DNA of 64,000 nt, taken from the NCBI GenBank assembly GCA_050246315.1, contig JBFWWG010000001.1, positions 256,001 to 320,000 of the forward strand, in the 5' to 3' direction. Below, piece after piece: positions 18,829 to 38,454 of this stretch; position 1 is the stretch's first letter; every line of letters begins with the position of its first letter. The notes under the pieces are model-generated. The model did no database searches. It had not been told where the DNA came from and saw nothing but the letters and a program-made list of their open reading frames with translations. The DNA comes from Nitrospiraceae bacterium. Lineage in GTDB: Bacteria > Nitrospirota > Nitrospiria > Nitrospirales > Nitrospiraceae. Made by a program: the position numbers and the translations under genes.

Positions 18829-21231
18829 CTAGCGGATTGCGGCTCGTTGCAGGCGCAGGCTGTTGGCCACGACGCTGACGGAGCTGAACGCCATCGCGGC
18901 GCTCGCGAGAATCGGGCTCAGCAAAATCCCGAAGGACGGGTAGAGGATGCCGGCCGCCACCGGTATGCCGACCACGTTGTAGGCGAAGGCCCAGAACAAG
19001 TTCTGTTTCATGGTCGTCATCGTCCGTCTGGACAATTCGATGGCTGCGACCGCGCTCCGCAGATCCGACCGCATCAACGTGACGTCACTTGCTTCGATCG
19101 CGATGTCCGTACCGGTGCCGACGGCCAGTCCGACATCCGCCTGTGCCAAGGCCGGCGCGTCGTTTATTCCATCGCCCACCATTGCCACGGTCTCTCCCGC
19201 CTCCTGCAAGCGCCTGATCTCGGCCAACTTGCCTTCGGGCGAGACGCGAGCGACGACACGTTCGATCCCGGCTTCCCGAGCGACGGCCTCCGCAGTGCTC
19301 CGGTGATCGCCTGTGAGCATCGTGATGTGAAGCCCCAGCCGCCTCATCTGTTCCACGGCCATCCTCGAACTCGCCTTGATCCGGTCGGCGACCGCCATGA
19401 GGCCGGCCAACCGCCCGTCGATCGCAAGAAACATCGGCGTCTTGCCTTCATTCGCTAGACGCTCGGCCTCCTTCCGCAGTTCGTCGATCGCAACACCGGA
19501 GGCCGCCATCAAGGCTTCGTTGCCGACCAGGACGCTCAGGCCGTCGATCCTGCCCTTCGCACCCTGACCGGTTACCGCCTGGAACTCTTCGGCTCGCGTC
19601 AATTCAAGCGACTGCTCCTGGGCGTACCGGACGATCGCCTCGGCCACGGGATGCTCCGATGATCGCTCCAGTGACGCGACTAGGCGAAGCACCTCACGAT
19701 CCGACCGGGACGCGGCCTTGCTGCTCACGTAATCGGTGAGAGCCGGTTGCCCTTCCGTGATCGTGCCGGTCTTGTCCAACACCACGGTCGTCACTCCGCC
19801 GATCCGCTGCAAGGCCTCGCCCCCTTTGATCAGGATTCCGAGTTCGGCGCCTTTCCCGGTCGCCACCATGACCGCGGTCGGCACGGCGAGTCCCATCGCG
19901 CAAGGGCAGGCGATGATCAACACGGCCACGGAAGCCGCGAAGGCCCTCACCCCCGGGGCCGCCTCCGCCGCGACGAACCAGACGACGAAGGTGGCGACAG
20001 CGAGCGACAGCACCACCGGCACAAAGATCGCGCTGACGCGATCGGCCAGCTTCTGAATCGGCGCGCGCGAACTCTGCGCGTCGCGCATGACGGTGACGAT
20101 CCGGGAGAGGACGCTCGCACCGCCGACCGTCGTCGCCTGATACTGAAAGGCGCCGGTCTTGTTGATCGTCCCGCCGATCACCGCATCGCCGGCATGCTTG
20201 TCGATCGGCAGCGATTCGCCGGTGAGCATCGATTCGTCCACGGTGCTCGTCCCGGCGACGATCGTTCCGTCCACCGGAATCCGTTCGCCGGGCCGCACGA
20301 CCACCAGATCTCCGGTTTCGACCGTCTCGACCGGCACGGCCTGTTCCACCCCGTCGCGCAGGACCAGCGCGGTCTTCGGTTGCAAGGCGACCAACCGTCG
20401 GAGTGCGGCGGAGGTTTGGCGTTTCGCCCGAGCCTCCATCATATTGCCGGTCAGAATCAGCGCGATGATGAGGATCACGGCCTCGTAGTACACATCCGGG
20501 GCCACGCCGCGTTCGATGAAGAAACCCGGCGCCAGCGTCGCGCTCGCGCTGTACAGAAAGGCCCCGCCGGTGCCGACGGCGATCAACGTATTCATGTCCG
20601 CCGAATGGTGGCGGAACGCCGTCCAGGCTCGGACATAAAATTGCCGTCCCGCCCACACCATGACTCCCAGCGTCATACCGAGCAGCGCGAAGGAGAGGAC
20701 TGGCGGTTCGATGCCGTAGAGCCAGGGTATCGCCGCCCCGAGTCCCGGCGTCAGACTCTCCATGACCCATCGCATGAACGGGTCCGCAACCGGACCATGC
20801 TGGTCTGCGCCGGCCATCAAGGGCATGGACAGCACCATCGCTACCACACCGGCCAGTCCGCTCCAGATCGCCTTCCGTTTGAGCGAAACGAACTCGTCCA
20901 CCTGCGCGGAATCCCGCGCCTGCTGCTCATCCACTACCGTCAGGTCGGGCCGCGGCAGGGACGCCTGGTATCCGGTTTCATTGATTGCGGCGACGAGATC
21001 ATCCGGCGACGCGGCGGCCGGATCGAACCGGACCGCCGCGCTCTTCATCATCAGGTTGACGGAGGCCTCGATCACCCCCGGTTGTCGTTCGAGCACACGC
21101 TGCACCCTCGCTTGGCAGGCGGCGCAGGTCATGCCATCGATCGAAATCGTGATCGTTTGATGGGCCGCCGTTCCACCTTCGGAGCCGGGTTCCCTGATCT
21201 CAATCGAATGGTCCTTCAGCGCCGTTTCCAT
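18829..21231 (-). CDS. copA: Cu(I)-translocating P1B-type ATPase
   Basis: GMTCAAC HMA domain, [40 protein letters not shown]. Confidence 0.96.
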
Positions 21232-21347
21232 GAGGAGACCTCCTTGGTGAGATCGATCCTTCGGCCCTGGGCCAGGAAGAAGTACCAGTTGATCCAAGCG
21301 ATGGCGGCAACCCCGCCGATGACGACGAGCCATTCGATCGCGCTCAT
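21216..21347 (-). CDS. 43-aa membrane peptide, probably a truncated anchor of a cupredoxin-domain protein
   Basis: [24 protein letters not shown]; start overlaps the copZ stop. Confidence 0.55.
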
Positions 21348-21562: not shown

Positions 21563-21829
21563 GACGTTCCTCCTTCTGTTGTTGGTCGGCTGCCTGTCTG
21601 ATGACAGGCACTGTCACCACTACAGACGGAAGAGGGTGCGGATTATTACAGTCGGGAGGGCCTCCCCCCTAGGGGTGCCCCTCCCTGGTTAGACGGGGAT
21701 GAGGGTTGGAGCCATGTGTAGATTCGATTCAGATTCGAGTCAGTCCCCGCCAAGCAGAGCCCGCGTCACAACATGTCCGATAACGAACATCGCCACGAGG
21801 ATCAGTCCGGCTGGATGCATGAGCAGAGT

Positions 21830-22105
21830 TAGCCCGCATCATGCATGGCGGTTCGTGACGAATTAGCGGAGTCGCGTCGCGAGACGGGAGCGTGGAGCCG
21901 CGAGGGAGGAAGGCGTACTTGAAACAGTATGTCGACCGACCGAGCGGCGAGCCCGCCCGCTATACCGCACTTCGTGCGAACCGGCGGCGCGTCGGGCAAC
22001 GCCCCTCTTCATTGTCGCCGCCGGAGAAACACCTTCGATTGTCAAAGCTTGTCGCAGCAGCGAATCCGCAATTGCAGTAGAACTGTTCATGAATAATGCG
22101 GGCTA
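21830..22105. mobile_element. Family-A MITE-like element
   Basis: TIR TAGCCCGCATCATGCATG ... CATGAATAATGCGGGCTA; right end overlaps the TAG stop of the protease gene. Confidence 0.75.
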
Positions 22106-23278
22106 GTAGTTGGCCCCTCTTTCCCATCTCCACCTGGGCCTAACCGGTGTGGCGGTATCAGTAAGCGGCAGGCCTGTGTGCAACTGCGACGTCACGGTGG
22201 GGATCGGACGTTCTCGCAACGTGATCGACGTGTGATGGAGTTTTCCGGCTCGCAGGAACTCGACCTCAACCTTGTCCCCGACCCGCAAGGCTTTGATCGC
22301 GTGGCTGAATTCTTCCGGCGACCGCACGAGTTTGTTCTCTATGGAAAGGACGATATCCCCGCCTAAGATCCAGGGCGTCCCCTCCACAACAATGTGCAGC
22401 CCACCACCCTGGAGCCCCGCCTCCGCCGCCGGGCTCCCCTCCTCCACCCGTTCGATGAGCCATCCCTTGCTCATGGGGAGAGAAAAGAGCGTCACCACCT
22501 GATCCGTCGGGAAGGTGCCGGTCACTCCCAACCAGGGACGTGAAACATGCCCGTTCGTCTTGAGTTCGTCGAGGACAGCTTTGGCCCGATTGATCGGGAT
22601 CGCGAATCCGATATTCTGGGCGCCTGCGATGATGGCCGTCGTGATGCCGATGACGTCGCCGTGCGAGTTCATCACCGGCCCTCCGCTGTTGCCGGGATTG
22701 ATCGGCGCCGTTGTCTGGATCATCCCGTCATTCGGTCCCGTTTTTTGTATCCCCGGGCCTCCCCATCCGCTGATGATGCCGTTTGTCAAGGTGAACCCCA
22801 GGCCGAAGGGACTGCCCACGACGAGCACCTTCTGGCCCACCTTGACTCCATCTGAATCGCCCAGGCGCACCGTAGCAAGTTGGCCCTTGACTGAGTCCAA
22901 CTTCACCACTGCCACGTCCGTTTGGGGATCAATCCCCACAAGCTCCGCGGCCACCTTCCGCCCGTCATAGAGCGTCGCGATTATGGTCGTGGCCCCGGCG
23001 ACCACATGGGCATTGGTCAACACCGTCCCCTCTCCATCCAGGATGAAGCCTGCACCGAACCCCACCCCGGAGGAACCTGTGACTCCATTCAACCCTGTCG
23101 ACGCCGTAAACAGGGACACGGTCGCAGGGGCGACCCGCTCATACAGTCGAACGGTTTGATCCTCTTCTGATAAGGCCGCCAGGATGGACGAGGGCTGGCT
23201 CGACATGATCAGGATCGTGCAGACGAGGACGCTTCGCACGGCACAGCGCCACCCGGCCGTATATGAGACTCGTGTCAT
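22103..23278 (-). CDS. HtrA/DegP-like serine protease with one PDZ domain
   Basis: LTNAHVV, DVAVV, INPGNSGGP, C-terminal PDZ. Confidence 0.92.
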   Translation of the reverse strand: MTRVSYTAGWRCAVRSVLVCTILIMSSQPSSILAALSEEDQTVRLYERVAPATVSLFTASTGLNGVTGSSGVGFGAGFILDGEGTVLTNAHVVAGATTIIATLYDGRKVAAELVGIDPQTDVAVVKLDSVKGQLATVRLGDSDGVKVGQKVLVVGSPFGLGFTLTNGIISGWGGPGIQKTGPNDGMIQTTAPINPGNSGGPVMNSHGDVIGITTAIIAGAQNIGFAIPINRAKAVLDELKTNGHVSRPWLGVTGTFPTDQVVTLFSLPMSKGWLIERVEEGSPAAEAGLQGGGLHIVVEGTPWILGGDIVLSIENKLVRSPEEFSHAIKALRVGDKVEVEFLRAGKLHHTSITLRERPIPTVTSQLHTGLPLTDTATPVRPRWRWERGANY

Positions 23279-23360
23279 TGGATTCTCCCCTCGCGCCGTC
23301 TCGCGAACAGGCCTCCGTCGGTCGGACGGCCGTCGAGAGACTTCCCTGGATTCGAACCGT

Positions 23361-23765
23361 TCATGCCATGCCGCCGACCGGCAGCGGCTCTCGTTGTCCC
23401 ACGGTCGCTGCGGAATAGACGAGGTCAAGAAACAGAAGACGGCTCAGCGGCTTGGTCAACCAGGCATAGGCGCCCAACTCCACCGCGCGCATGGACAGAT
23501 CCGTCTCAAGTCCCGAAACGATAATGACGGGCATGTGGTGGTCCTGCTCATGTACACGAGCCATCACCTCCAGGCCGTTGACACCCGGCATCTGAAAGTC
23601 GGTGACGACCACATCGAACGGTTCGGCCTTGATCCGCTTCAGTGCCTCTTCTCCGTCACAAGCCTCGCCGACGACATAGCCCTCGCCGGCAAGAAGAACT
23701 GCCATCAGTGCTCTGACATCTTCGTTGTCGTCTACGACCAAGATTCGCCTGCCTCGGTGATCCAT
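23361..23765 (-). CDS. Single-domain response regulator (CheY-like)
   Basis: ILVVDD, TDFQMPGVNG, LTKP. Confidence 0.88.
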   Translation of the reverse strand: MDHRGRRILVVDDNEDVRALMAVLLAGEGYVVGEACDGEEALKRIKAEPFDVVVTDFQMPGVNGLEVMARVHEQDHHMPVIIVSGLETDLSMRAVELGAYAWLTKPLSRLLFLDLVYSAATVGQREPLPVGGMA

Positions 23766-24099
23766 GCCGGCCTCCCATGAATGGGGCCTCGCTCAACAGT
23801 CAACACGAGGCCCTGTTGAAAAATAGTTGGACCGTTAACCTCCCATGCGGAGTTGGTCGCCCAACCTTCCGGTTCAAAGACACCTGCCCAATCTCCAGAA
23901 CGAGGTGCGTGCCTCAAGGCACATGCGGACTCACTGTCCTTGCCTGTCCATCAGGGCGTCACAACCTGGCCCGACCGTCTCGCCCATGTGAAGCCTTACG
24001 CTGGCTGCACCGTGCGCGGGTCACAGGGCTGGCCGGACTTCAGCACCCCGTAGGCCAATGAAAGGAGGCCCAATTCATAGAATCTCCTTGTTTACTCAT

Positions 24100-24969
24100 T
24101 TCGCTTGTGACTGGAGCTCATGATCCACACTCGTGCTTATCAGCAATGGCCGTTCCACGCGCGATGCCGACAGGGATCATGACTCCAACCCATTGATCAT
24201 CCGGACCATTTATCGCCATGCTTCTCGCCACTCTGTTTGAGATAAGGAGCAGTGCCGAACGTCGGCCAGCCGTTCATTCGGCAATCGCCGACATATCGGC
24301 ACACTGCGTTTGACCCTAGCGGATTGCGGCTCGTTGCAGGCGCAGGCTGTCGGCCACGACGCTGACGGAGCTGAACGCCATCGCGGCGCTCGCGAGAACC
24401 GGGCTCGGCAAAATCCCGAAGGACGGGTAGAGGATGCCGGCCGCCACCGGTATGCCGGCCAGGTTGTAGGCGAAGGCCCAGAACAAGTTCTGTTTCACGA
24501 TCGTCATCGTCCGCCTGGACAACTCGATCGCGTTGGCTGTGCTCCGAAGGTCCGAGCGCATCAGCGTGACATCGCTCGCCTCGATCGCGATATCGCTGCC
24601 GGTGCTGACGGCGATCAACGTATTCCTGTCCGCCGAATGGTGGCGGAGGCCGACCATTCCCGAAGGTGGAACTGCCGCCCGGCCCAGACCATCACACCGG
24701 CTGTCATGCCCAGCAGTGCGAATGAGAGGACTCGCGGTTCGATCGCGTAGAGCCAGGGCGCGGTAGCCCGTAGCCCCGGCGCCAGGCTCTCCATGACCCA
24801 TCGCATCAACGGAGGGGTGCCCCTCCCTGGTCAGACGGGGATAGGGGTTGGAGCCATGTGTAGATTCGATTCAGATTCGAGTCAGTCCCCGCCAAGCAGA
24901 GCCCGCGTCACAACATGTCCGATAACGAACATCGCCACGAGGATCAGTCCGGCTGGATGCATGAGCAGA
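24100..24969. repeat. Deleted duplicate of the 18613-21827 segment
   Basis: 24100-24612 matches 18613-19125; 24599-24811 matches 20567-20780; 24813-24969 matches 21671-21827; includes a second sigma-54 box at 24142-24157. Confidence 0.9.
24316..24811 (-). pseudogene. copA: Internally deleted copA remnant
   Basis: N-terminal TM segment (NTLIAV) fused to the C-terminus (DIAIEASD...RLQRAAIR); additional frameshift. Confidence 0.9.
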
Positions 24970-24983
24970 CTCAGGATGAACAT
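24882..24983 (-). CDS. 33-aa small membrane protein
   Basis: MFILSLLMHPAGLILVAMFVIGHVVTRALLGGD; RBS AAAGGAGGAG; downstream of promoter P1. Confidence 0.65.
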   Translation of the reverse strand: MFILSLLMHPAGLILVAMFVIGHVVTRALLGGD

Positions 24984-25018
24984 CTCTGTCTCCTCCTTTC
25001 GCTTGTCCTTGCATCTCA

Positions 25019-25063
25019 AAGGTACGCGACCGGGATGAAAACCCGGTGAAGACCCGGTGAAGG
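25019..25063 (-). promoter_or_regulatory. P1: triple direct-repeat box promoter
   Basis: CCTTCAC-N4-TCTTCAC-N4-TTTTCAT-N10-TACCTT. Confidence 0.75.
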
Positions 25064-25075
25064 TGTTCCCGCCAA

Positions 25076-25120
25076 TCTTCATCGGTTCTTCACGAATTCT
25101 TCATCCGTGCCGGCTAACCT
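25076..25120 (+). promoter_or_regulatory. P2: triple direct-repeat box promoter
   Basis: TCTTCAT-N4-TCTTCAC-N4-TCTTCAT-N10-TAACCT. Confidence 0.78.
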
Positions 25121-25211
25121 GCGCGCAGGCTCAACGAGAGCCCCAGCGGAGCCATGTTGGTACAGGCCCTTGAACCTGGGAACAGGAACCCGACAAGGAG
25201 ACAACGGCACG

Positions 25212-25307
25212 ATGTTCGTCCTTCTGCTTGCCCTGATCGGACTGTTTCTGCTCCTCGCATGCATGGTGGGAGTCGCGCTGTATACGGAGAACCGCAAACA
25301 ACGATGA
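25212..25307 (+). CDS. 31-aa small membrane protein
   Basis: MFVLLLALIGLFLLLACMVGVALYTENRKQR; RBS AAGGAGA. Confidence 0.65.
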   Translation: MFVLLLALIGLFLLLACMVGVALYTENRKQR

Positions 25308-25724
25308 CTACCGGTCATAATCGCCGGCCGCCTCCGGCTGATAGAGGATTTCCTCGATCCTCACCTTTTTCACCCCCGCCGGAACCTGCCATTCGATGGT
25401 ATCTCCGACTCGGTACCCCAACATGGCGGTGCCGATCGGGGCGAGCACGGAAATCTTGCTCTCCTCGATCTTGGCCTGGCTGGGAAACACCAGGGTGTAA
25501 ACCCGCTCATCTCCCGTATCGAGATCGAGCAGGCGGACCTGCGAGTTCATCGTCACCACGTCTTGTGGAATCGCTTTCGGATCCACCACGTGCGCCCGAT
25601 CGAGTTCCCGCTCCAGGCTCTGGAGATACTCGCTATTTTTCCCTTTGAACACGATCCCGACCTGCAAGAGTTCCGACAGTCGTTCAAGGTCAAAGGCGGT
25701 GATATAGATGTCTCGATGTTCCAT
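25308..25724 (-). CDS. rnk: Nucleoside diphosphate kinase regulator (GreA/GreB family)
   Basis: DVVTMNS, YTLVFP, ISVLAPIGTAMLGY, ILYQPEAAG. Confidence 0.93.
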   Translation of the reverse strand: MEHRDIYITAFDLERLSELLQVGIVFKGKNSEYLQSLERELDRAHVVDPKAIPQDVVTMNSQVRLLDLDTGDERVYTLVFPSQAKIEESKISVLAPIGTAMLGYRVGDTIEWQVPAGVKKVRIEEILYQPEAAGDYDR

Positions 25725-25816
25725 GGTGTCACACTCCTTGTTTGACGGATGAGAGAACGCGATTTCCGACTGTACGGTGTAAGGCCGGTCCTGGCCGAGC
25801 AGCCCAAAAATTGATC

Positions 25817-25999
25817 TTACGGTCGTGAAGGGGCTTCTGGAGGGGAGTGCCTGCGACGGAGATAGGGAGAGACGTCCCCCGTGACGTTCACGGATTTCCC
25901 GACGGACGCGTGCCTCGACGACCAGATCATCCAGACCGCCGCCATGGGCAGCATCGTCGTTCCGAGAGCAGAGAGCACAATGATGGCCGACAGGGGCAT
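25817..25999 (-). CDS. 60-aa small protein with an N-terminal TM helix
   Basis: MPLSAIIVLSALGTTMLPMAAVWMIW...; RBS AAAGGGAG; downstream of P3. Confidence 0.6.
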   Translation of the reverse strand: MPLSAIIVLSALGTTMLPMAAVWMIWSSRHASVGKSVNVTGDVSPYLRRRHSPPEAPSRP

Positions 26000-26021
26000 G
26001 ACGTCTCCCTTTCCTCAGTCA

Positions 26022-26066
26022 ACGATACGACCGCCGGATGAAGATTGCATGAAGAACGGATGAAGA
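26022..26066 (-). promoter_or_regulatory. P3: triple direct-repeat box promoter
   Basis: TCTTCAT-N4-TCTTCAT-N4-TCTTCAT-N10-TATCGT. Confidence 0.8.
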
Positions 26067-26178
26067 CTCTCTCAGGTTGCCTCGTTGATAGGTCTTGCTG
26101 CGTCATTCGTCATTCGTCCTTTATATATGTCTCGCGTTCCTCCTTTCGCATTGGCGCCCCACTCAGAAGATGAACCAT

Positions 26179-26223
26179 TCTTCACGATCGGTTCACCCCT
26201 TCTTCATGCTGCACTGGTACCCT
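26179..26223 (+). promoter_or_regulatory. P4: triple direct-repeat box promoter, probable autoregulatory promoter of the two-component operon
   Basis: TCTTCAC-N4-GGTTCAC-N4-TCTTCAT-N10-TACCCT. Confidence 0.75.
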
Positions 26224-26287
26224 TTGCCTCATCAGATGACGGGCTCCATGCGATGTCCACTCCCACACAGGCCATGAGGTGAATGCG

Positions 26288-26380
26288 ATGTCCGAAACCA
26301 TCAGCTCTGGGGTCATGCTTACGCTTCTGTTGGTCGCGATGACGGTGCTGATCCTATGGGGCATGTCTCTATTGGCATAA
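26288..26380 (+). CDS. 30-aa small membrane protein A
   Basis: MSETISSGVMLTLLLVAMTVLILWGMSLLA; RBS GAGGTG; below the ORF-track cutoff. Confidence 0.65.
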   Translation: MSETISSGVMLTLLLVAMTVLILWGMSLLA

Positions 26381-26435
26381 ACAACCGACTCGCGCGCATA
26401 AGGGGATTCGCGATAGATCAAGAGAGGAGGTTCGA

Positions 26436-26528
26436 ATGATGTCAGAACTCTTAGCCAGTCTCATGCTGATCGTGACGGTGGGAGGAATGGCGCTGCTCGT
26501 CATGTGGGGCCTGTCCATCATCGTGTAG
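26436..26528 (+). CDS. 30-aa small membrane protein B (paralog of A)
   Basis: MMSELLASLMLIVTVGGMALLVMWGLSIIV; RBS GAGGAGG. Confidence 0.7.
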   Translation: MMSELLASLMLIVTVGGMALLVMWGLSIIV

Positions 26529-26662
26529 TCGGCTCAGGAACGGCTCGAACAGTCGTCGATATGACCAGCCCCGTGGCATTTCATGGGCCGGCAGGAGCAC
26601 AATAGGGCGGAGCGCCAGTCGAAAAGTTCGACTGGCGCTCCGCCGGCCCGGACATCACCGCC

Positions 26663-27343
26663 ATGCGCATCCTCCTCGTCGAAGACGATACCAATCTCGC
26701 CCAGTTCGTGCAGAAGGGTCTCCGCGAGGAACGTTACGCCGTCGATTGGGCGGCCGACGGCGAAGCGGGGCTCGACCTTGCCGGCCACAATGAGTACGAC
26801 CTCCTCATTGTGGACATTCTCCTACCCAAGTTGGACGGATTGACGCTCTGCCGCCGACTCCGATCCAGCGGAGGACGGACGCCGATCCTTCTGTTGACGG
26901 CACAGGACTCCGTTCAAGACAAGGTGGCGGGGCTCGACAGCGGCGCCGACGACTACCTGACCAAGCCTTTCGCCTTCGCGGAACTCCTGGCCCGCGTGCG
27001 GGCCCTCCTTCGTCGAGGCGGCCCCCACACGCCCACGCGCTTCAAGGCGGCGGACTTGGAGCTCGATCCCGCCTCCCACCGAGTTTGGCGAGCCGGCAAG
27101 GAGATTGCGCTGACGAACAAGGAATACGCGATTCTGGACTTTCTCCTTCGGAACAAGAACCGCGTTCTGACCCGGACTGCGATCATCGAACATGTGTGGG
27201 ATATCAGCTACGATCCCATGACCAACATCGTGGACGCGCATATCCGGTCACTCCGCGTGAAGATCGATCGCGACTTTTCGCCGCAACTCATCACGACCGT
27301 GCGAGGAGCCGGCTACATGCTGGAAGCACCGGAGGATGCATGA
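26663..27343 (+). CDS. OmpR/PhoB-family response regulator (CusR/CzcR-like)
   Basis: ILLVEDD, GADDYLTKPF, winged helix with TVRGAGY. Confidence 0.95.
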   Translation: MRILLVEDDTNLAQFVQKGLREERYAVDWAADGEAGLDLAGHNEYDLLIVDILLPKLDGLTLCRRLRSSGGRTPILLLTAQDSVQDKVAGLDSGADDYLTKPFAFAELLARVRALLRRGGPHTPTRFKAADLELDPASHRVWRAGKEIALTNKEYAILDFLLRNKNRVLTRTAIIEHVWDISYDPMTNIVDAHIRSLRVKIDRDFSPQLITTVRGAGYMLEAPEDA

Positions 27344-28767
27344 CGTTCTTCCGGAACCTGATCCGTGCTTGGGCCTTGGCGCTGATTCTCGTGGTCCTGG
27401 CTATCTTCAGCGCGCTGCTCTATGGAGGGTTTGAGGTTCTGCTTCAGCGCTATGCCGACGCCAGGTTGCTGGGGCTCGCACAGACGCTGGCTGCCATTAT
27501 CGAGCAACGGCCGGATCTCCTGAGCGGCAGTCGAGAACAAGAGATCGTTCCGCTTCAGGAGACGGACACGGACGAAGCGCAGCACGAATTGCGCGAAGCG
27601 GCACACTCGATCGTCGTCCTCACCCCAGACGGTCGGATCGTCTGGCAAGGTTCCAATGTCGTGCCCCGTCCGCCGGTGAGCAGCGAGCTGCTCGAAACGA
27701 TCCGGAGCGGAAATCCCCTCTACGACACGGTTTCCACCGTCAACGGGTCGCCGGTGCGACGCCTGTCGCTCCCGATCCCTGCTCGGGGAGAGGTCCGGTA
27801 CATTCTCCAGGCCGAGGCTTCGCTCGGATTTGCGGAGCGGGCCCTCCGCAATCTCTTGGGTTTGCTCGCGATCGTGTCCGCTGCCATGATGGCCGTGGCC
27901 TGGTTGGGCAGCGGCTGGCTGGCGCGAAAGGTCTTAGGACCGATCGACGTCTTGAGCGCCACGGCGGAGACCGTCTCCGGCTCGGCGCTCGAAACCAGGT
28001 TGAACGTGGATGCTCCCTATCGGGAGTTCCATCGGTTGGCGCAGGCCTTCAATGCCATGCTGGACCGATTGCAGAAGGTTTTCGAGGGCCAGCGGCGTTT
28101 TGTGGACCATGCGGCGCATGAAATGCAAACACCTCTGACGGTCTTGCAGGGGAACATCGAGGTGGCGCTCCAGAAGGCGCGCACGGCAGAGGAATACCGC
28201 GAGGCCTTGCTGAATAACTGGGAAGAGGTCCAGCGGTTGGTCAGCCTGACTCGGTCGCTCTTGACCCTGGCCCGATTGAGCGGGGATCACTCACCCGTGC
28301 AGCCTACTTCGCTCGCGCTTGAACCGCTGCTCCGGGAACTGGTCGAGGAGCTGATGGTCCTGGCCGAAGATTACAAGCTCCAGTTGAGGCTTCAGGCTGA
28401 TCCGGTGCCTTCCATCCAAGGCGACGCCCGGTGGCTCAAGCAGGCGGTGATTAACCTCTTGCACAACGCGCTCCGCTACACGGAACCGGGCGGGCGCGTT
28501 ACGGTAAGCCTCGGGGTCCTGGGCAATGAGATCCGTATCGCGGTCGAAGATACGGGTCAGGGGATCGAATCCGATCAGTTGCCGCACCTCTTCGAGCGAT
28601 TTTATCGCACCGACCGGGCGAGGGCGCGAGATTCCGGCGGCACCGGCCTGGGCCTGCCGATCGTGAAAGAAATCATTGAGGCGCACGGCGGCCGCATCAC
28701 GGTGGAGAGCCAGGTCGGGATCGGCTCAATCTTCACGCTCTGGCTACCGGTTCCTCATCCACATTAG
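27340..28767 (+). CDS. Sensor histidine kinase (2 TM, HAMP, HisKA, HATPase)
   Basis: AAHEMQTPL, NLLHNALRY, DTGQGI, GGTGLGL; ATGA overlap with the regulator. Confidence 0.95.
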   Translation: MTFFRNLIRAWALALILVVLAIFSALLYGGFEVLLQRYADARLLGLAQTLAAIIEQRPDLLSGSREQEIVPLQETDTDEAQHELREAAHSIVVLTPDGRIVWQGSNVVPRPPVSSELLETIRSGNPLYDTVSTVNGSPVRRLSLPIPARGEVRYILQAEASLGFAERALRNLLGLLAIVSAAMMAVAWLGSGWLARKVLGPIDVLSATAETVSGSALETRLNVDAPYREFHRLAQAFNAMLDRLQKVFEGQRRFVDHAAHEMQTPLTVLQGNIEVALQKARTAEEYREALLNNWEEVQRLVSLTRSLLTLARLSGDHSPVQPTSLALEPLLRELVEELMVLAEDYKLQLRLQADPVPSIQGDARWLKQAVINLLHNALRYTEPGGRVTVSLGVLGNEIRIAVEDTGQGIESDQLPHLFERFYRTDRARARDSGGTGLGLPIVKEIIEAHGGRITVESQVGIGSIFTLWLPVPHPH

Positions 28768-28857
28768 ACATGACGGCTCATGACGTTCCACCTGTTGCCT
28801 GAATTGTCAAAATCAAGACATGACCCCAATCACAATCAGATGTGGCGGGCTCGTCAT

Positions 28858-29850
28858 TCAGCCCGCGTTCCTTGCCGCTCGAAGATTTGGAAAGCGCTCG
28901 CTCGCGAACAACAACACCCATGTGACGAGCACGAAGGGAAGCGTCAGCGCGGGCATGCCAAGCGGCTGCAGTGCAGCGGACACTGCCGCGAACACGAAGG
29001 GAGTGGCGATCGTGGCCACCAGCGCATAGGCCACCGATACGCTTCCCGGCATAAAAAAGACAGTACCCATGGCGACTGCGACAAGCACGCTGTTGAATCC
29101 GAACGCACCCGAGCGGATCGCAGGTTCAGCGGCGCCCATACCCCAAGCCACGAGCACCCCGCTCAGCGACCCCAACAGCGCCGCAGCACCGGCCGCCCTT
29201 GACCCGATGAACAGCCCAGCCACGAATAGAATGCCGGTAACCATGCTTTCTTGAAAGAAGACCTGAGCAATACCGTTGAAGAGGCCTTCGACGACCGACG
29301 AAGCGGTTACGACTCCCTCCACTGCCACTGTCTTGGGCAGGCCGGCGGTCGGTAGGAGACCCGTGGTCTGGAGTCGCCCAAAACGCGCCGTCGCCAGGAA
29401 GAAACACAGGGAGATGAAGACAAATGGCGCTGTGAGTGCGGGCATTTTCCAGCCCTCCAGCAGAGAAAGCATTGCCGCCATGGCGATTGTCGAGCACGCC
29501 GCCGCGAAACCGACGCACCCCCAGGTCAACGCATTCGGTTGCAGGAAGAAGAGCAAGGCGATGCCCACGAGCCCGCCATTGAAGCCGAAGAGCCCTGCCC
29601 GGACCAGCGTGCGATCGACGCCCAACAACAACGCGGTGGCCGTGCTCACCGCACCGCCGAGCAGGAGGGCGGTCCCGAACAGCAGGGAGCTGTAACACAC
29701 CCCCATGACGAAGAGCAGACCGGTATAGCTGTTGTTCTGGAGCATCACTTGGCCGATGCCGCGCAGTACGGAATCAAGAAAATCCAACAGCGAATGCGAA
29801 ACACCCTGGCCTTCTACGACGAGACCCGTCGAGGAGAATCGCGCGGCCAT
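28858..29850 (-). CDS. Urea transporter (UT/Yut family)
   Basis: LRGIGQVMLQNN, GLFGFNG, PALTAPF, GIAQVFFQ, PALTLPF. Confidence 0.9.
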   Translation of the reverse strand: MAARFSSTGLVVEGQGVSHSLLDFLDSVLRGIGQVMLQNNSYTGLLFVMGVCYSSLLFGTALLLGGAVSTATALLLGVDRTLVRAGLFGFNGGLVGIALLFFLQPNALTWGCVGFAAACSTIAMAAMLSLLEGWKMPALTAPFVFISLCFFLATARFGRLQTTGLLPTAGLPKTVAVEGVVTASSVVEGLFNGIAQVFFQESMVTGILFVAGLFIGSRAAGAAALLGSLSGVLVAWGMGAAEPAIRSGAFGFNSVLVAVAMGTVFFMPGSVSVAYALVATIATPFVFAAVSAALQPLGMPALTLPFVLVTWVLLFASERFPNLRAARNAG

Positions 29851-30055
29851 AACGTCAGAATCCCCCGTGGCCGATCTGCGCATCCGGTATGTGATGCCCA
29901 AGAGACATGCCGGTGACCTTCACGCAGTGGGATGCGAGCATGCGATTCTCCTCCATAATCAAGCTGTCAGCTCTCCGCCTAAAATCGTTGCGGCGATCAC
30001 CTACCACATCGCTTTTTTCGCGCACTGGGTGAGACTTGGACTTTCCTTGCCGGCG

Positions 30056-30401: not shown

Positions 30402-30404
<3 letters not shown>
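30218..30404. mobile_element. Family-A MITE-like element
   Basis: TIR TAGCCCACATTATTCATGA ... TCGTGAATAATGCGGGCTA; overlaps the antitoxin TAG stop. Confidence 0.78.
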
Positions 30405-30924
<520 letters not shown>

Positions 30925-36652: not shown

Positions 36653-36697
36653 TCTTCATGGTCCCTTCATCGCCTTCTCATCTTCCGACCGTACAGT
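36653..36697 (+). promoter_or_regulatory. P5: triple direct-repeat box promoter
   Basis: TCTTCAT-N4-CCTTCAT-N4-TTCTCAT-N10-TACAGT. Confidence 0.72.
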
Positions 36698-36748: not shown

Positions 36749-37690
36749 ATGGCACGAGGGCACTTGTGGTCGATTGTGTTGGCGGGAGGAGACGGAGTTC
36801 GGGCGAGGGCCTTCATTCGTCAGTGGCTGGGATCGGCTAGCCCGAAACAGTACTGCGCCTTCGTCGGGACCCGCTCCATGTTCCAACACACGCTCGACCG
36901 TGCGGCCCTCCTCACGCCTTGGGAGCGTATCGTCGTGGTGGCCGCACGGCACCATCAGCCGGAGGTGTGGCATCAGCTCCACCGGAGGCCCGCAGGCCTG
37001 GTGCTCTTGCAGCCCGAGAATCGAGACACGGCGGCCGGAGTGTTTCTTCCGCTGACCTATATCCTCGCGCGCGATCCCGGCGCGAGCGTCGTGGTCTATC
37101 CATCGGATCACTTCATCTATCCGGAAGACCGGTTTGTCTCGGCGGTGGACCATGCAGTGCGGGGAAGCAACCTGCTGGGGGGACGGCCCGTCCTCCTGGC
37201 CGCAAGGCCGGATTTCCCTGAATTGGAGTACGGATGGATTCATCCCGGCCGGTTTCTCGGCTGGACGGGCGATGCCCCCGTCTTGGCGGTGGACAGCTTC
37301 ATCGAGAAACCGGAGGCGGCGGCCGCACGACTAGCCAAAGATCGCGGCGGTCTGTGGAATACGATGGTCCTGGCGGCGGGAGGCAAGCAGCTCTGGGATC
37401 TCGGGCTGGACTGCGTCCCGGAGATGATGGCCCTCTTCGACCGGTTGAGACGCGCCATCGATACGACGGACGAGCCGAAGGTCCTCTCTGCGATCTATGA
37501 CACCATGCCGCGGAGGAGCTTCTCATCGCATCTGCTGCAGCGCAGGCCGGACCGGCTGGGGGTCATGGAGATGCGCGAGGTTCTGTGGAGCGACTGGGGG
37601 AACCCTGCGCGAATCACGGAGACCCTCGACAGGATCGGGAAGCAACCGGCTTTCGCGGAGGAAACGCGCGAACTGCTTCCCACGGGGTGA
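36749..37690 (+). CDS. Sugar-phosphate nucleotidyltransferase (mannose-1-phosphate guanylyltransferase-like)
   Basis: VLAGGDG.R, PKQYC, QPENRDTA, PSDH, YGWI, FIEKP, WSDWG. Confidence 0.88.
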   Translation: MARGHLWSIVLAGGDGVRARAFIRQWLGSASPKQYCAFVGTRSMFQHTLDRAALLTPWERIVVVAARHHQPEVWHQLHRRPAGLVLLQPENRDTAAGVFLPLTYILARDPGASVVVYPSDHFIYPEDRFVSAVDHAVRGSNLLGGRPVLLAARPDFPELEYGWIHPGRFLGWTGDAPVLAVDSFIEKPEAAAARLAKDRGGLWNTMVLAAGGKQLWDLGLDCVPEMMALFDRLRRAIDTTDEPKVLSAIYDTMPRRSFSSHLLQRRPDRLGVMEMREVLWSDWGNPARITETLDRIGKQPAFAEETRELLPTG

Positions 37691-37794: not shown

Positions 37795-38454
37795 ATGACG
37801 ATGGCGACGCTCCCTTATCAAGCGAAAACCTTCAATCTCAGCGGCCTCACCGGCATTTCTGACCGGACCGTCGAGCTGCATCTTTCGCTCTATCACGGGT
37901 ACGTTCGTGAGGCCAATCGCCTCAGCGAACGGATTCGCACCTTTCTGGCGGATGGGCCCGTCGATCAGGACGATATGCCGTTGTTTTCCGAACTGACCCG
38001 CCGGCTGGGGTTCGAATACAACGGTATGGTCCTGCACGAATATTATTTCGGCAACCTCATCCGGCACGGAGCAGGCGATCCCGGCCGTTCGTCATTGTTC
38101 ACGCGAGCGGCCGAGGGCAGCTTCGGGTCATACGACGTCTGGAAAACGGATTTTGTGGCCACGGCGTCGATGCGGGGGATCGGGTGGACCATCTGCTATT
38201 ACGATCCGATGACGGGTCGGTTGTCGAACCACTGGATCAGCTCGCATGAAGTTGGCGTCGTCGCCGGCTTCGTGCCGTTGCTCGTGCTCGATCTGTGGGA
38301 ACATGCGTACCTGCTCGACTACGCACCATCGGAACGGCAAACCTATGTTGAGGCCTTCTTCTCCAACATTCGTTGGGAGGCTGTGGACGAACGATTGAAC
38401 GAATGCGCAAGAACGCGCATGGAGCGGGTGCGACAAGAACTCTACGGGCCGTGA
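37795..38454 (+). CDS. Fe/Mn superoxide dismutase-like protein
   Basis: ELH..LY.GYV, NGMVLHEYYF, LDLWEHAY; all four metal ligands present. Confidence 0.88.
   Translation: MTMATLPYQAKTFNLSGLTGISDRTVELHLSLYHGYVREANRLSERIRTFLADGPVDQDDMPLFSELTRRLGFEYNGMVLHEYYFGNLIRHGAGDPGRSSLFTRAAEGSFGSYDVWKTDFVATASMRGIGWTICYYDPMTGRLSNHWISSHEVGVVAGFVPLLVLDLWEHAYLLDYAPSERQTYVEAFFSNIRWEAVDERLNECARTRMERVRQELYGP

Follow-up and report, generated by a model that had tools for sequence, protein, structure and literature searches.

A putative OmpR-family two-component system of Nitrospira with triple direct-repeat promoters that precede small membrane open reading frames

The window analysed here, a stretch of 64,000 nucleotides from a Nitrospiraceae bacterium (G000:C1:256001-320000; the genome, G000, comprises 4.39 Mb at 59.7% G+C), contains the genes of an OmpR-family response regulator and a sensor histidine kinase together with five promoters, P1 to P5, that each carry three direct repeats, and these are followed by short open reading frames (ORFs) for predicted single-helix membrane peptides and by a few longer genes. 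As argued below, regulator, promoters and peptides probably constitute one positively autoregulated circuit. The features on which this argument rests are the following, with coordinates given in the window.

25019-25063, minus strand: promoter P1, boxes at 25035-25061 (CCTTCAC-cggg-TCTTCAC-cggg-TTTTCAT), 10 bp, -10 element TACCTT at 25019-25024, start predicted at about 25012
25076-25120, plus strand: promoter P2, back to back with P1, triple box TCTTCAT-cggt-TCTTCAC-gaat-TCTTCAT, 10 bp, -10 TAACCT, start predicted at about 25127
26022-26066, minus strand: promoter P3, triple box TCTTCAT-ccgt-TCTTCAT-gcaa-TCTTCAT, 10 bp, -10 TATCGT, start predicted at about 26015
26179-26223, plus strand: promoter P4, the proposed autoregulatory promoter, triple box TCTTCAC-gatc-GGTTCAC-ccct-TCTTCAT, 10 bp, -10 TACCCT, start predicted at about 26230
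36653-36697, plus strand: promoter P5, triple box TCTTCAT-ggtc-CCTTCAT-cgcc-TTCTCAT (one mismatch in the third box), 10 bp, -10 TACAGT, start predicted at about 36704
24882-24983, minus strand: s1, first cistron of P1, 33 residues, single helix, motif LMHPAG
25212-25307, plus strand: s2, 31 residues, after P2, apparently transcribed alone and converging on rnk
25308-25724, minus strand: rnk, second cistron of P3, Rnk_N and GreA/GreB C-terminal domains (Pfam)
25817-25999, minus strand: s3, first cistron of P3, 60 residues, N-terminal helix
26288-26380, plus strand: s4a, after P4, 30 residues, 'MWGMS' family
26436-26528, plus strand: s4b, 30 residues, paralog of s4a
26663-27343, plus strand: OmpR-family response regulator, receiver and winged helix (Pfam)
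27340-28767, plus strand: sensor histidine kinase, with membrane helix, periplasmic PAS-like (PDC) domain, membrane helix, HAMP, HisKA and HATPase
36749-37690, plus strand: nucleotidyl-transferase gene downstream of P5 (Pfam PF00483)
37795-38454, plus strand: gene resembling Fe/Mn superoxide dismutase (SOD), Sod_Fe_C 79.6 bits, N-terminal domain below cut-off

The promoters follow a single plan, in which TTCAY occurs three times at an 11-bp period and is followed after 10 bp by TAnnnT, and all five were found where a preliminary description of this DNA had placed them. Scanning for the core pattern TTCAY-N6-TTCAY-N6-TTCAY with at most one mismatch gave five matches in the window, against a mean of 0.05 and a maximum of 1 in 100 shuffles, none of which (0/100) reached five. 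Over both strands of the 4.39-Mb genome the core pattern has eight matches, namely P1 to P5 and three outside the window, and the latter three are all without TAnnnT at +10. The genome scan by weight matrix proposed in the same description was furthermore carried out with a matrix trained on 112 sites of other Nitrospira, to which neither the window nor its near-twin G002 contributed, and it exceeds 12 bits at 5 of 8,767,554 positions of G000, which are exactly the five promoters (P5 44.6, the highest score in the genome, P4 42.9, P2 30.3, P3 25.3 and P1 16.4 bits). The triple box of P1 is kept in G002 and G001, and that of P5 is also present in G001, G002 and G003.

The protein encoded at 26663-27343 has a receiver domain (PF00072, 102.1 bits) followed by a Trans_reg_C winged helix (PF00486, 91.0 bits), which is the arrangement of OmpR/PhoB-type regulators, and it aligns over its full length to solved members of the OmpR family (best 1kgs_A, E 6.3e-60); D51 is its predicted phospho-acceptor. 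The domains of this protein and of the adjacent kinase agree with the two-component system that had been recognised from the letters alone. Among NCBIfam models the regulator scores best with TIGR01387 (CusR, CopR, CzcR, SilR; 265.2 bits, under the cut-off of 279.2) and the kinase with TIGR01386 (CusS, CopS, CzcS; 279.3 bits, under the cut-off of 292.55), so that the pair appears nearest to the heavy-metal CusRS/CopRS subfamily, though under the curated cut-offs. The rnk gene matches its family model NF004396 (142.7 bits, cut-off 109), and, as had been described earlier, P3 leads into rnk and P4 into the regulator-kinase pair.

Whether the boxes belong to this regulator is best judged by comparison. 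We surveyed 41 related genomes, G000 included, and found orthologs of the regulator at 66-98% identity in G001, G002, G004, G006, G008, G009 (unpublished), G023 and G026, the best matches in the others not exceeding 55%. The full pattern including the -10 element is present in 9/9 ortholog-bearing genomes (again counting G000; 8/8 without the unpublished G009) at one to seven copies each, and none was found in 29 of the 32 genomes without an ortholog. The three exceptions, which have the pattern but no ortholog, are G003, which is of the same genus as the window and only 90% complete, G039, and G028 (a single mismatched match). A reversed control pattern gave no match in any of the 41 genomes. 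Triple boxes are furthermore present in 7/7 orthologous loci that were fetched, and in each of these apart from L034 a triple box is followed at a distance of 10 bp by TAnnnT. In a wider set of 80 Nitrospira loci (1,026,538 bases) there are 146 pattern matches, distributed over 71 loci, of which 110 have TAnnnT exactly 10 bp past the third box, to be compared with the three background matches in the 4.39 Mb of G000. The sites lie on the strand of the regulator in 135 of 144 cases, and a site is found within 900 nt after the kinase gene in 58/67 loci and within 650 nt before the regulator gene in 19/72. P1 to P5 are thus very probably targets of the neighbouring regulator, and the earlier proposal that it controls the boxes gains strong comparative support from co-occurrence, from the positions of the sites and from the uniqueness of the matrix hits, all of which is evidence from sequence. 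One could instead assign the boxes to another OmpR-family regulator, be it a paralog of roughly 52% identity (G000:C1:50179-50844) or PhoB, and regard the neighbour as a bystander; TTCAY repeats at 11 bp do resemble sites of the PhoB and PhoP type, and the paralog is present throughout the order. It is however the ortholog and not the paralog that the boxes accompany, the genomes with paralog but no ortholog being the very ones of which 29 of 32 have no box pattern, and furthermore the sites cluster tightly at regulator-kinase genes and all five sites of this genome lie inside the window that holds the regulator, four of them upstream of its gene. We consider this assignment very improbable.

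As to what the regulator does at these sites, the pho boxes of PhoB are 11-bp direct repeats that end 10 bp before the -10 element and replace the -35 element, and direct-repeat sites are likewise used by Streptomyces PhoP and cyanobacterial SphR, some such systems having three or more repeats. P1 to P5 resemble these promoters in repeat period, in the 10 bp to the -10 element and in the position of the repeats in place of the -35 element, a likeness that concerns promoter architecture only. With the -10 element at -12 to -7, the boxes occupy -49/-45, -38/-34 and -27/-23, over the missing -35, and a search of 24200-29000 for sigma-70 promoters with both -35 and -10 elements found none, against 1.3 expected. 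Since this is the geometry of a pho box over a missing -35, the regulator most likely activates by recruiting RNA polymerase. The sign of regulation is admittedly not readable from sequence alone, and as the boxes overlap the core promoter, the regulator may be imagined to repress by covering the -35/-25 region until a signal releases it. Such repression is nonetheless improbable in our judgement, since no promoter has a -35 element, which is a hallmark of activator-dependent promoters, and since the 10-bp spacing fixed in 110 of the 146 sites is the one expected for contact with RNA polymerase. Binding by the regulator, and activation rather than repression, are what we infer from motif, geometry, conservation and co-occurrence taken together.

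The five small ORFs are all present as they had been described, each with a purine-rich Shine-Dalgarno-like motif and one hydrophobic stretch. The check on their conservation that had been suggested was made against G001, the closest informative relative, in which the DNA is 72% identical over 1741 of 1791 bases compared, and there all five are found in the same places with identical lengths, no insertions or deletions, the frame kept and 54-68% amino acid identity. The ratio of nonsynonymous to synonymous substitution rates (dN/dS) ranges from 0.09 to 0.68, being 0.09 for s4a, 0.28 for s4b, 0.40 for s1 (67% identity, same length), 0.55 for s2 (65% identity) and 0.68 for s3 (same length, 54% identity over 54 aligned residues). 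The last of these, found in G000, G001 and G002 only, is the least constrained and the weakest coding case of the five. The s4 family recurs behind triple boxes in many other Nitrospira with the consensus MGDTxxLAxYFPLxIVGMVLVIMWGMSAAG, including an invariant tryptophan (W24), and a ratio of nonsynonymous to synonymous differences (pN/pS) of 0.36; the LMHPAG motif of s1 is also found behind a box promoter in L042; and a family of 27 residues (e.g. MMTIFFALLALTAVLGVMYKAVYLDRE; pN/pS 0.57) lies behind boxes in 15 further loci, about 30 nt past the -10 element. A relation of s2 to this family, at 15-41% identity, is plausible and not secure. In all, a ribosome-binding site with a hydrophobic ORF of 20-90 residues lies 10-150 nt behind 48/108 box promoters, as compared with 181 of 20,000 positions drawn at random from these loci (0.9%), an enrichment of about 49-fold.

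These observations bear directly on the notion that the ORFs are no functional proteins at all but leader ORFs tuning downstream genes, or chance ORFs in 5' leaders. It is true that s1, s3 and s4a/s4b precede longer genes, that dN/dS is rather high for s3 and s2, and that no protein family matches. However a leader role is excluded for s2, which converges on rnk and has no downstream gene, and several of the 27-residue peptides elsewhere are likewise without an ORF of at least 90 residues within 700 nt. Motifs conserved across genera (W24 and MWGMS in s4, LMHPAG in s1), the enrichment over random positions and the low dN/dS of s4a are furthermore not what leader or chance ORFs lead one to expect, and we therefore find this notion unlikely. 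That the small ORFs are real single-helix membrane micropeptides, predicted to be translated as primary outputs of the system, appears to be the best explanation.

Small membrane proteins induced by two-component systems are well known, with MgrB, MgtS and PmrR of PhoPQ and SafA of EvgAS as examples. The present peptides resemble these in being single-helix peptides of about 30-60 residues under promoters of the system, several unrelated ones in one regulon, and in sitting directly after the box promoters, control by the regulator being the presumed part of the likeness; they differ in showing no sequence similarity and in that box-linked peptides usually follow the kinase gene, rather than being scattered on the chromosome. 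That the peptides modulate the kinase, as had been suggested by way of these examples, is so far without support: a small membrane ORF lies just upstream of the regulator gene in 8/72 loci only, and the idea of such an ORF as a universal feature was abandoned. As for their having been missed by annotation, a Pfam scan of the five matched no family and all five sequences are present in a large protein collection under the visible name 'hypothetical protein' only, so the peptides are indeed nameless, but gene callers did call them on public assemblies. A search for look-alikes of an s4-type peptide likewise returned nothing but 'hypothetical' entries (best score 0.86). An s4 profile run on 200 other genomes of the phylum gave weak matches (E 2.7e-4 to 0.0097) in six and none in the 28 family members, which represent five genera; two of these genera that were also surveyed (g10 and g19) had no regulator ortholog, and because of this the null says little. 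A terminator-like hairpin lies near s2 at 25344-25362, with 3.1 such hairpins expected by chance in the region.

Taken together we propose, with a probability of roughly 0.7, that this OmpR-family system is under positive autoregulation, that its promoters are PhoB-like and have no -35 element, and that it has micropeptides as outputs. The kinase would sense a signal outside the cytoplasm and phosphorylate the regulator, which would bind head to tail to the three TTCAY repeats, one helical turn apart and on one face of the DNA. The occupied boxes would stand in for the absent -35 element and recruit RNA polymerase to the TAnnnT -10 element, as in class II activation of the PhoB kind. In this genome the regulon would consist of exactly five promoters, of which P4 would drive s4a, s4b, regulator and kinase and thereby provide positive feedback, P1 would drive s1 and in sister species continue into copZ, a small membrane ORF and copA, P2 would drive s2 alone, P3 would drive s3 and rnk, and P5 would drive the nucleotidyl-transferase gene and perhaps the SOD-like gene. 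The latter lies about 100 nt 3' of the nucleotidyl-transferase gene on the same strand and is possibly co-transcribed; N. defluvii is stated to lack SOD in the introduction of the N. marina paper (PMC8115632).

Several points weigh against this proposal. The training sites of the matrix were chosen by the same pattern, the loci compared are mutually related so that counts across them exaggerate independent support, and s3 and s2 are weakly constrained, with the homology of s2 to the 27-residue family uncertain. Moreover, the nearest characterised regulators, AgrR, CopR and PcoR, use inverted and not direct repeats, binding an inverted 6-4-6 repeat ATKACANNNNTGTMAT, sometimes with an extra direct half-site (PMC7380067). 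In favour of the proposal, contigs from RNA libraries of four studies (wastewater, sludge) cover s2, s3, s4a, s4b, rnk, regulator and kinase, in one run without differences. They show the presence of these sequences in such libraries only, as contigs give no transcript starts, strand or level, and since a single contig extends over the entire locus, carry-over of DNA is possible. The intergenic bins between P3 and P4 and between P1 and P2 are without cover in run X1, though their flanks are covered, whereas the P3-P4 spacer is crossed by contigs of runs X4 and X6; no conclusion is drawn from either.

As the relatives use an inverted repeat and the boxes here are direct repeats, either the way in which this regulator binds DNA has changed, or it is part of a sister group that binds in the manner of PhoB. 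In other respects the system resembles CusRS, CopRS and AgrRS, since both proteins score best with these families and share their domain order, and in the genus of the window P1 leads to copZ-copA; the predicted positive autoregulation from a class II site also has a counterpart in AgrR, for which it is reported (PMC7380067). It differs from CusRS, CopRS and AgrRS in that both proteins are under the cut-offs, that the predicted operator consists of three direct repeats, and that cop genes are linked to the system in this one genus only. Nor is the regulator a PhoB, since it scores 190.1 bits with the PhoB equivalog TIGR02154 against a cut-off of 296.2, and no phosphate-uptake genes are found at the five sites of the genome. 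Systems of this general kind, in which an OmpR-family regulator acts at class II promoters with direct repeats and induces small membrane proteins, are already well known, as in the PhoPQ regulon; the traits that seem unusual are the pairing of a CopR-like protein with an operator of the PhoB type and the predominance of micropeptides in the regulon.

The targets found in other genera bear on the nature of the signal. The most frequent is an uncharacterised histidine-rich lipoprotein (25 sites), followed by a cysteine-rich protein of about 110 residues (19 sites) and the regulator itself (17 sites); further targets are a protein with LexA-like helix-turn-helix and S24 peptidase domains, nucleotidyl transferase and rnk. 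Of the last two, nucleotidyl transferase is found in 13/83 related loci, with the homolog in G004 preceded by a triple box that immediately follows the kinase gene, and rnk in 6/83. The lipoprotein family (L084:10890-11528 and 19 aligned relatives) has about 215 residues with five invariant histidines (H50, H162, H165, H166 and H191) and is often preceded by an s4-type micropeptide. It is modelled as a helical bundle (pLDDT 89.1), for which Foldseek gave no match at E <=0.001 and VIA-align a best Z of 8.6 to generic helical proteins; it was not found in the genome of the window, and neither it nor the cysteine-rich family matched Pfam. In G004 a box is followed by a one-strand run (L036:2026-5359) of LexA-like, CBS, S30AE/hibernation-factor-like, tandem Usp and rnk genes, which looks like a dormancy programme. 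Boxes are furthermore found before amoC in L083 (3041-3067) and L091 (10273-10848, two sites), and five tandem boxes precede nxrA in L053 (10214-10262), which suggests that the system touches core nitrification genes in some species.

For the genus of the window the best guess at the signal is copper, since in the two sister species, G002 and G001, P1-s1 is continued directly by copZ, a membrane ORF of 43 residues and copA; that both proteins are nearest to the heavy-metal families also speaks for it. The cation or envelope stress response put forward in the preliminary description is compatible with this gene order. In the window the same copper genes are intact, separated from s1 by an insert of about 3 kb relative to G002, and the region reads as follows.

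18829-21231, minus strand: copA
21216-21347, minus strand: membrane ORF of 43 residues
21344-21562, minus strand: copZ
21743-21832: partial copy of s1, just outside the insert
21828-24813: insert, about 3 kb, between s1 and copZ, all genes on the minus strand
22103-23428, minus strand: HtrA-like protease with PDZ domain, inside the insert
23361-23765, minus strand: receiver-only response regulator, inside the insert
24316-24801, minus strand: 3' fragment of copA, inside the insert

The block from copZ to copA is probably the ancestral tail of the P1 operon, as judged from the gene order in the sister species. The s1 segment is duplicated at the borders of the insert, since 156 bp of G002 align to both 21672-21827 and 24814-24969, and the two copies in the window are 100% identical over a stretch of 100 nt. 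The copA 3' fragment is diverged, being 88.7% identical to copA of G002 over 24084-24612. The contig of run X4 at 24463-24977 bridges the right-hand junction of the insert without differences.

Other observations speak against copper. Among 83 loci of other species copA and copZ occur near the system in one, that of G001, and the inverted cop box ATKACANNNNTGTMAT, allowing up to two mismatches, occurs three times in the window against 3.06 expected, with none at P1-P5 or upstream of copZ. In the sensor domain of 77 orthologs there is furthermore no conserved cysteine or methionine and a single histidine present in at least 80%. Its sequence matched no solved chain at E up to 10. When modelled (pLDDT 72.7), it has the form of a generic PAS-like (PDC) domain matching KinD, WalK and CitA, with CusS outside the top 50 fold matches. 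Overall the picture is rather that of a stress or dormancy programme to which one genus has added copper export. A broader envelope, oxidative or dormancy stress may accordingly be the signal, an assumption that we place just short of even odds, copper or another soft metal can be put forward only tentatively, and some other signal is unlikely.

Going further, one may speculate that this is a Nitrospira-specific circuit in which a regulator descended from the copper-type family has switched to a PhoB-like triple operator of direct repeats, with a main output of at least four unrelated micropeptide families, in other genera also of periplasmic histidine-rich lipoproteins, small cysteine-rich proteins and a dormancy-like set, and in a few species with boxes at additional copies of amoC or nxrA, and that it acts as a master switch for stress entry and survival, but in this full form the idea is rather unlikely. 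If it were true, the switch would govern the entry of nitrifiers into stress, or their survival of it, in soils and wastewater plants. In soils, waters and treatment plants most nitrite oxidation is due to Nitrospira, some of which are complete nitrifiers, and their gene regulation is almost unstudied, as they are difficult to cultivate and no genetic system exists for them. A full-text literature search found no paper describing the system, the boxes or the peptides in Nitrospira. Here a regulator-operator pair is predicted from sequence alone and with remarkably clean specificity, its five sites having no other match in 4.4 Mb, and as the operator is conserved across genera it offers a ready testable regulon and a possible reporter promoter. 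It furthermore adds several conserved micropeptide families that are named in no database, and a case in which a CopR-like protein seems to recognise direct instead of inverted repeats.

Some minor features of the locus should also be mentioned, the first of them on the leader of the regulator gene.

26606-26644, plus strand: perfect hairpin with an 18-bp stem and a 3-nt loop, between s4b and the regulator gene, 19 nt before the start codon of the latter

This hairpin has no T-run after it, and the surrounding 137 nt have a z-score of -4.96. It was considered as a conserved attenuator and rejected, as G002 has it but conservation does not extend to G001. A urea-transporter-like gene (28858-29901, minus strand; TIGR03441 254.5 bits, cut-off 274.6) directly follows the kinase gene, a position that is occupied by box-driven target genes in most other Nitrospira. 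Further on, at 30402-30846 on the minus strand, the ORF list has two overlapping ORFs of 87 and 63 residues, which by eye resemble an antitoxin-toxin pair of the BrnA/BrnT type.

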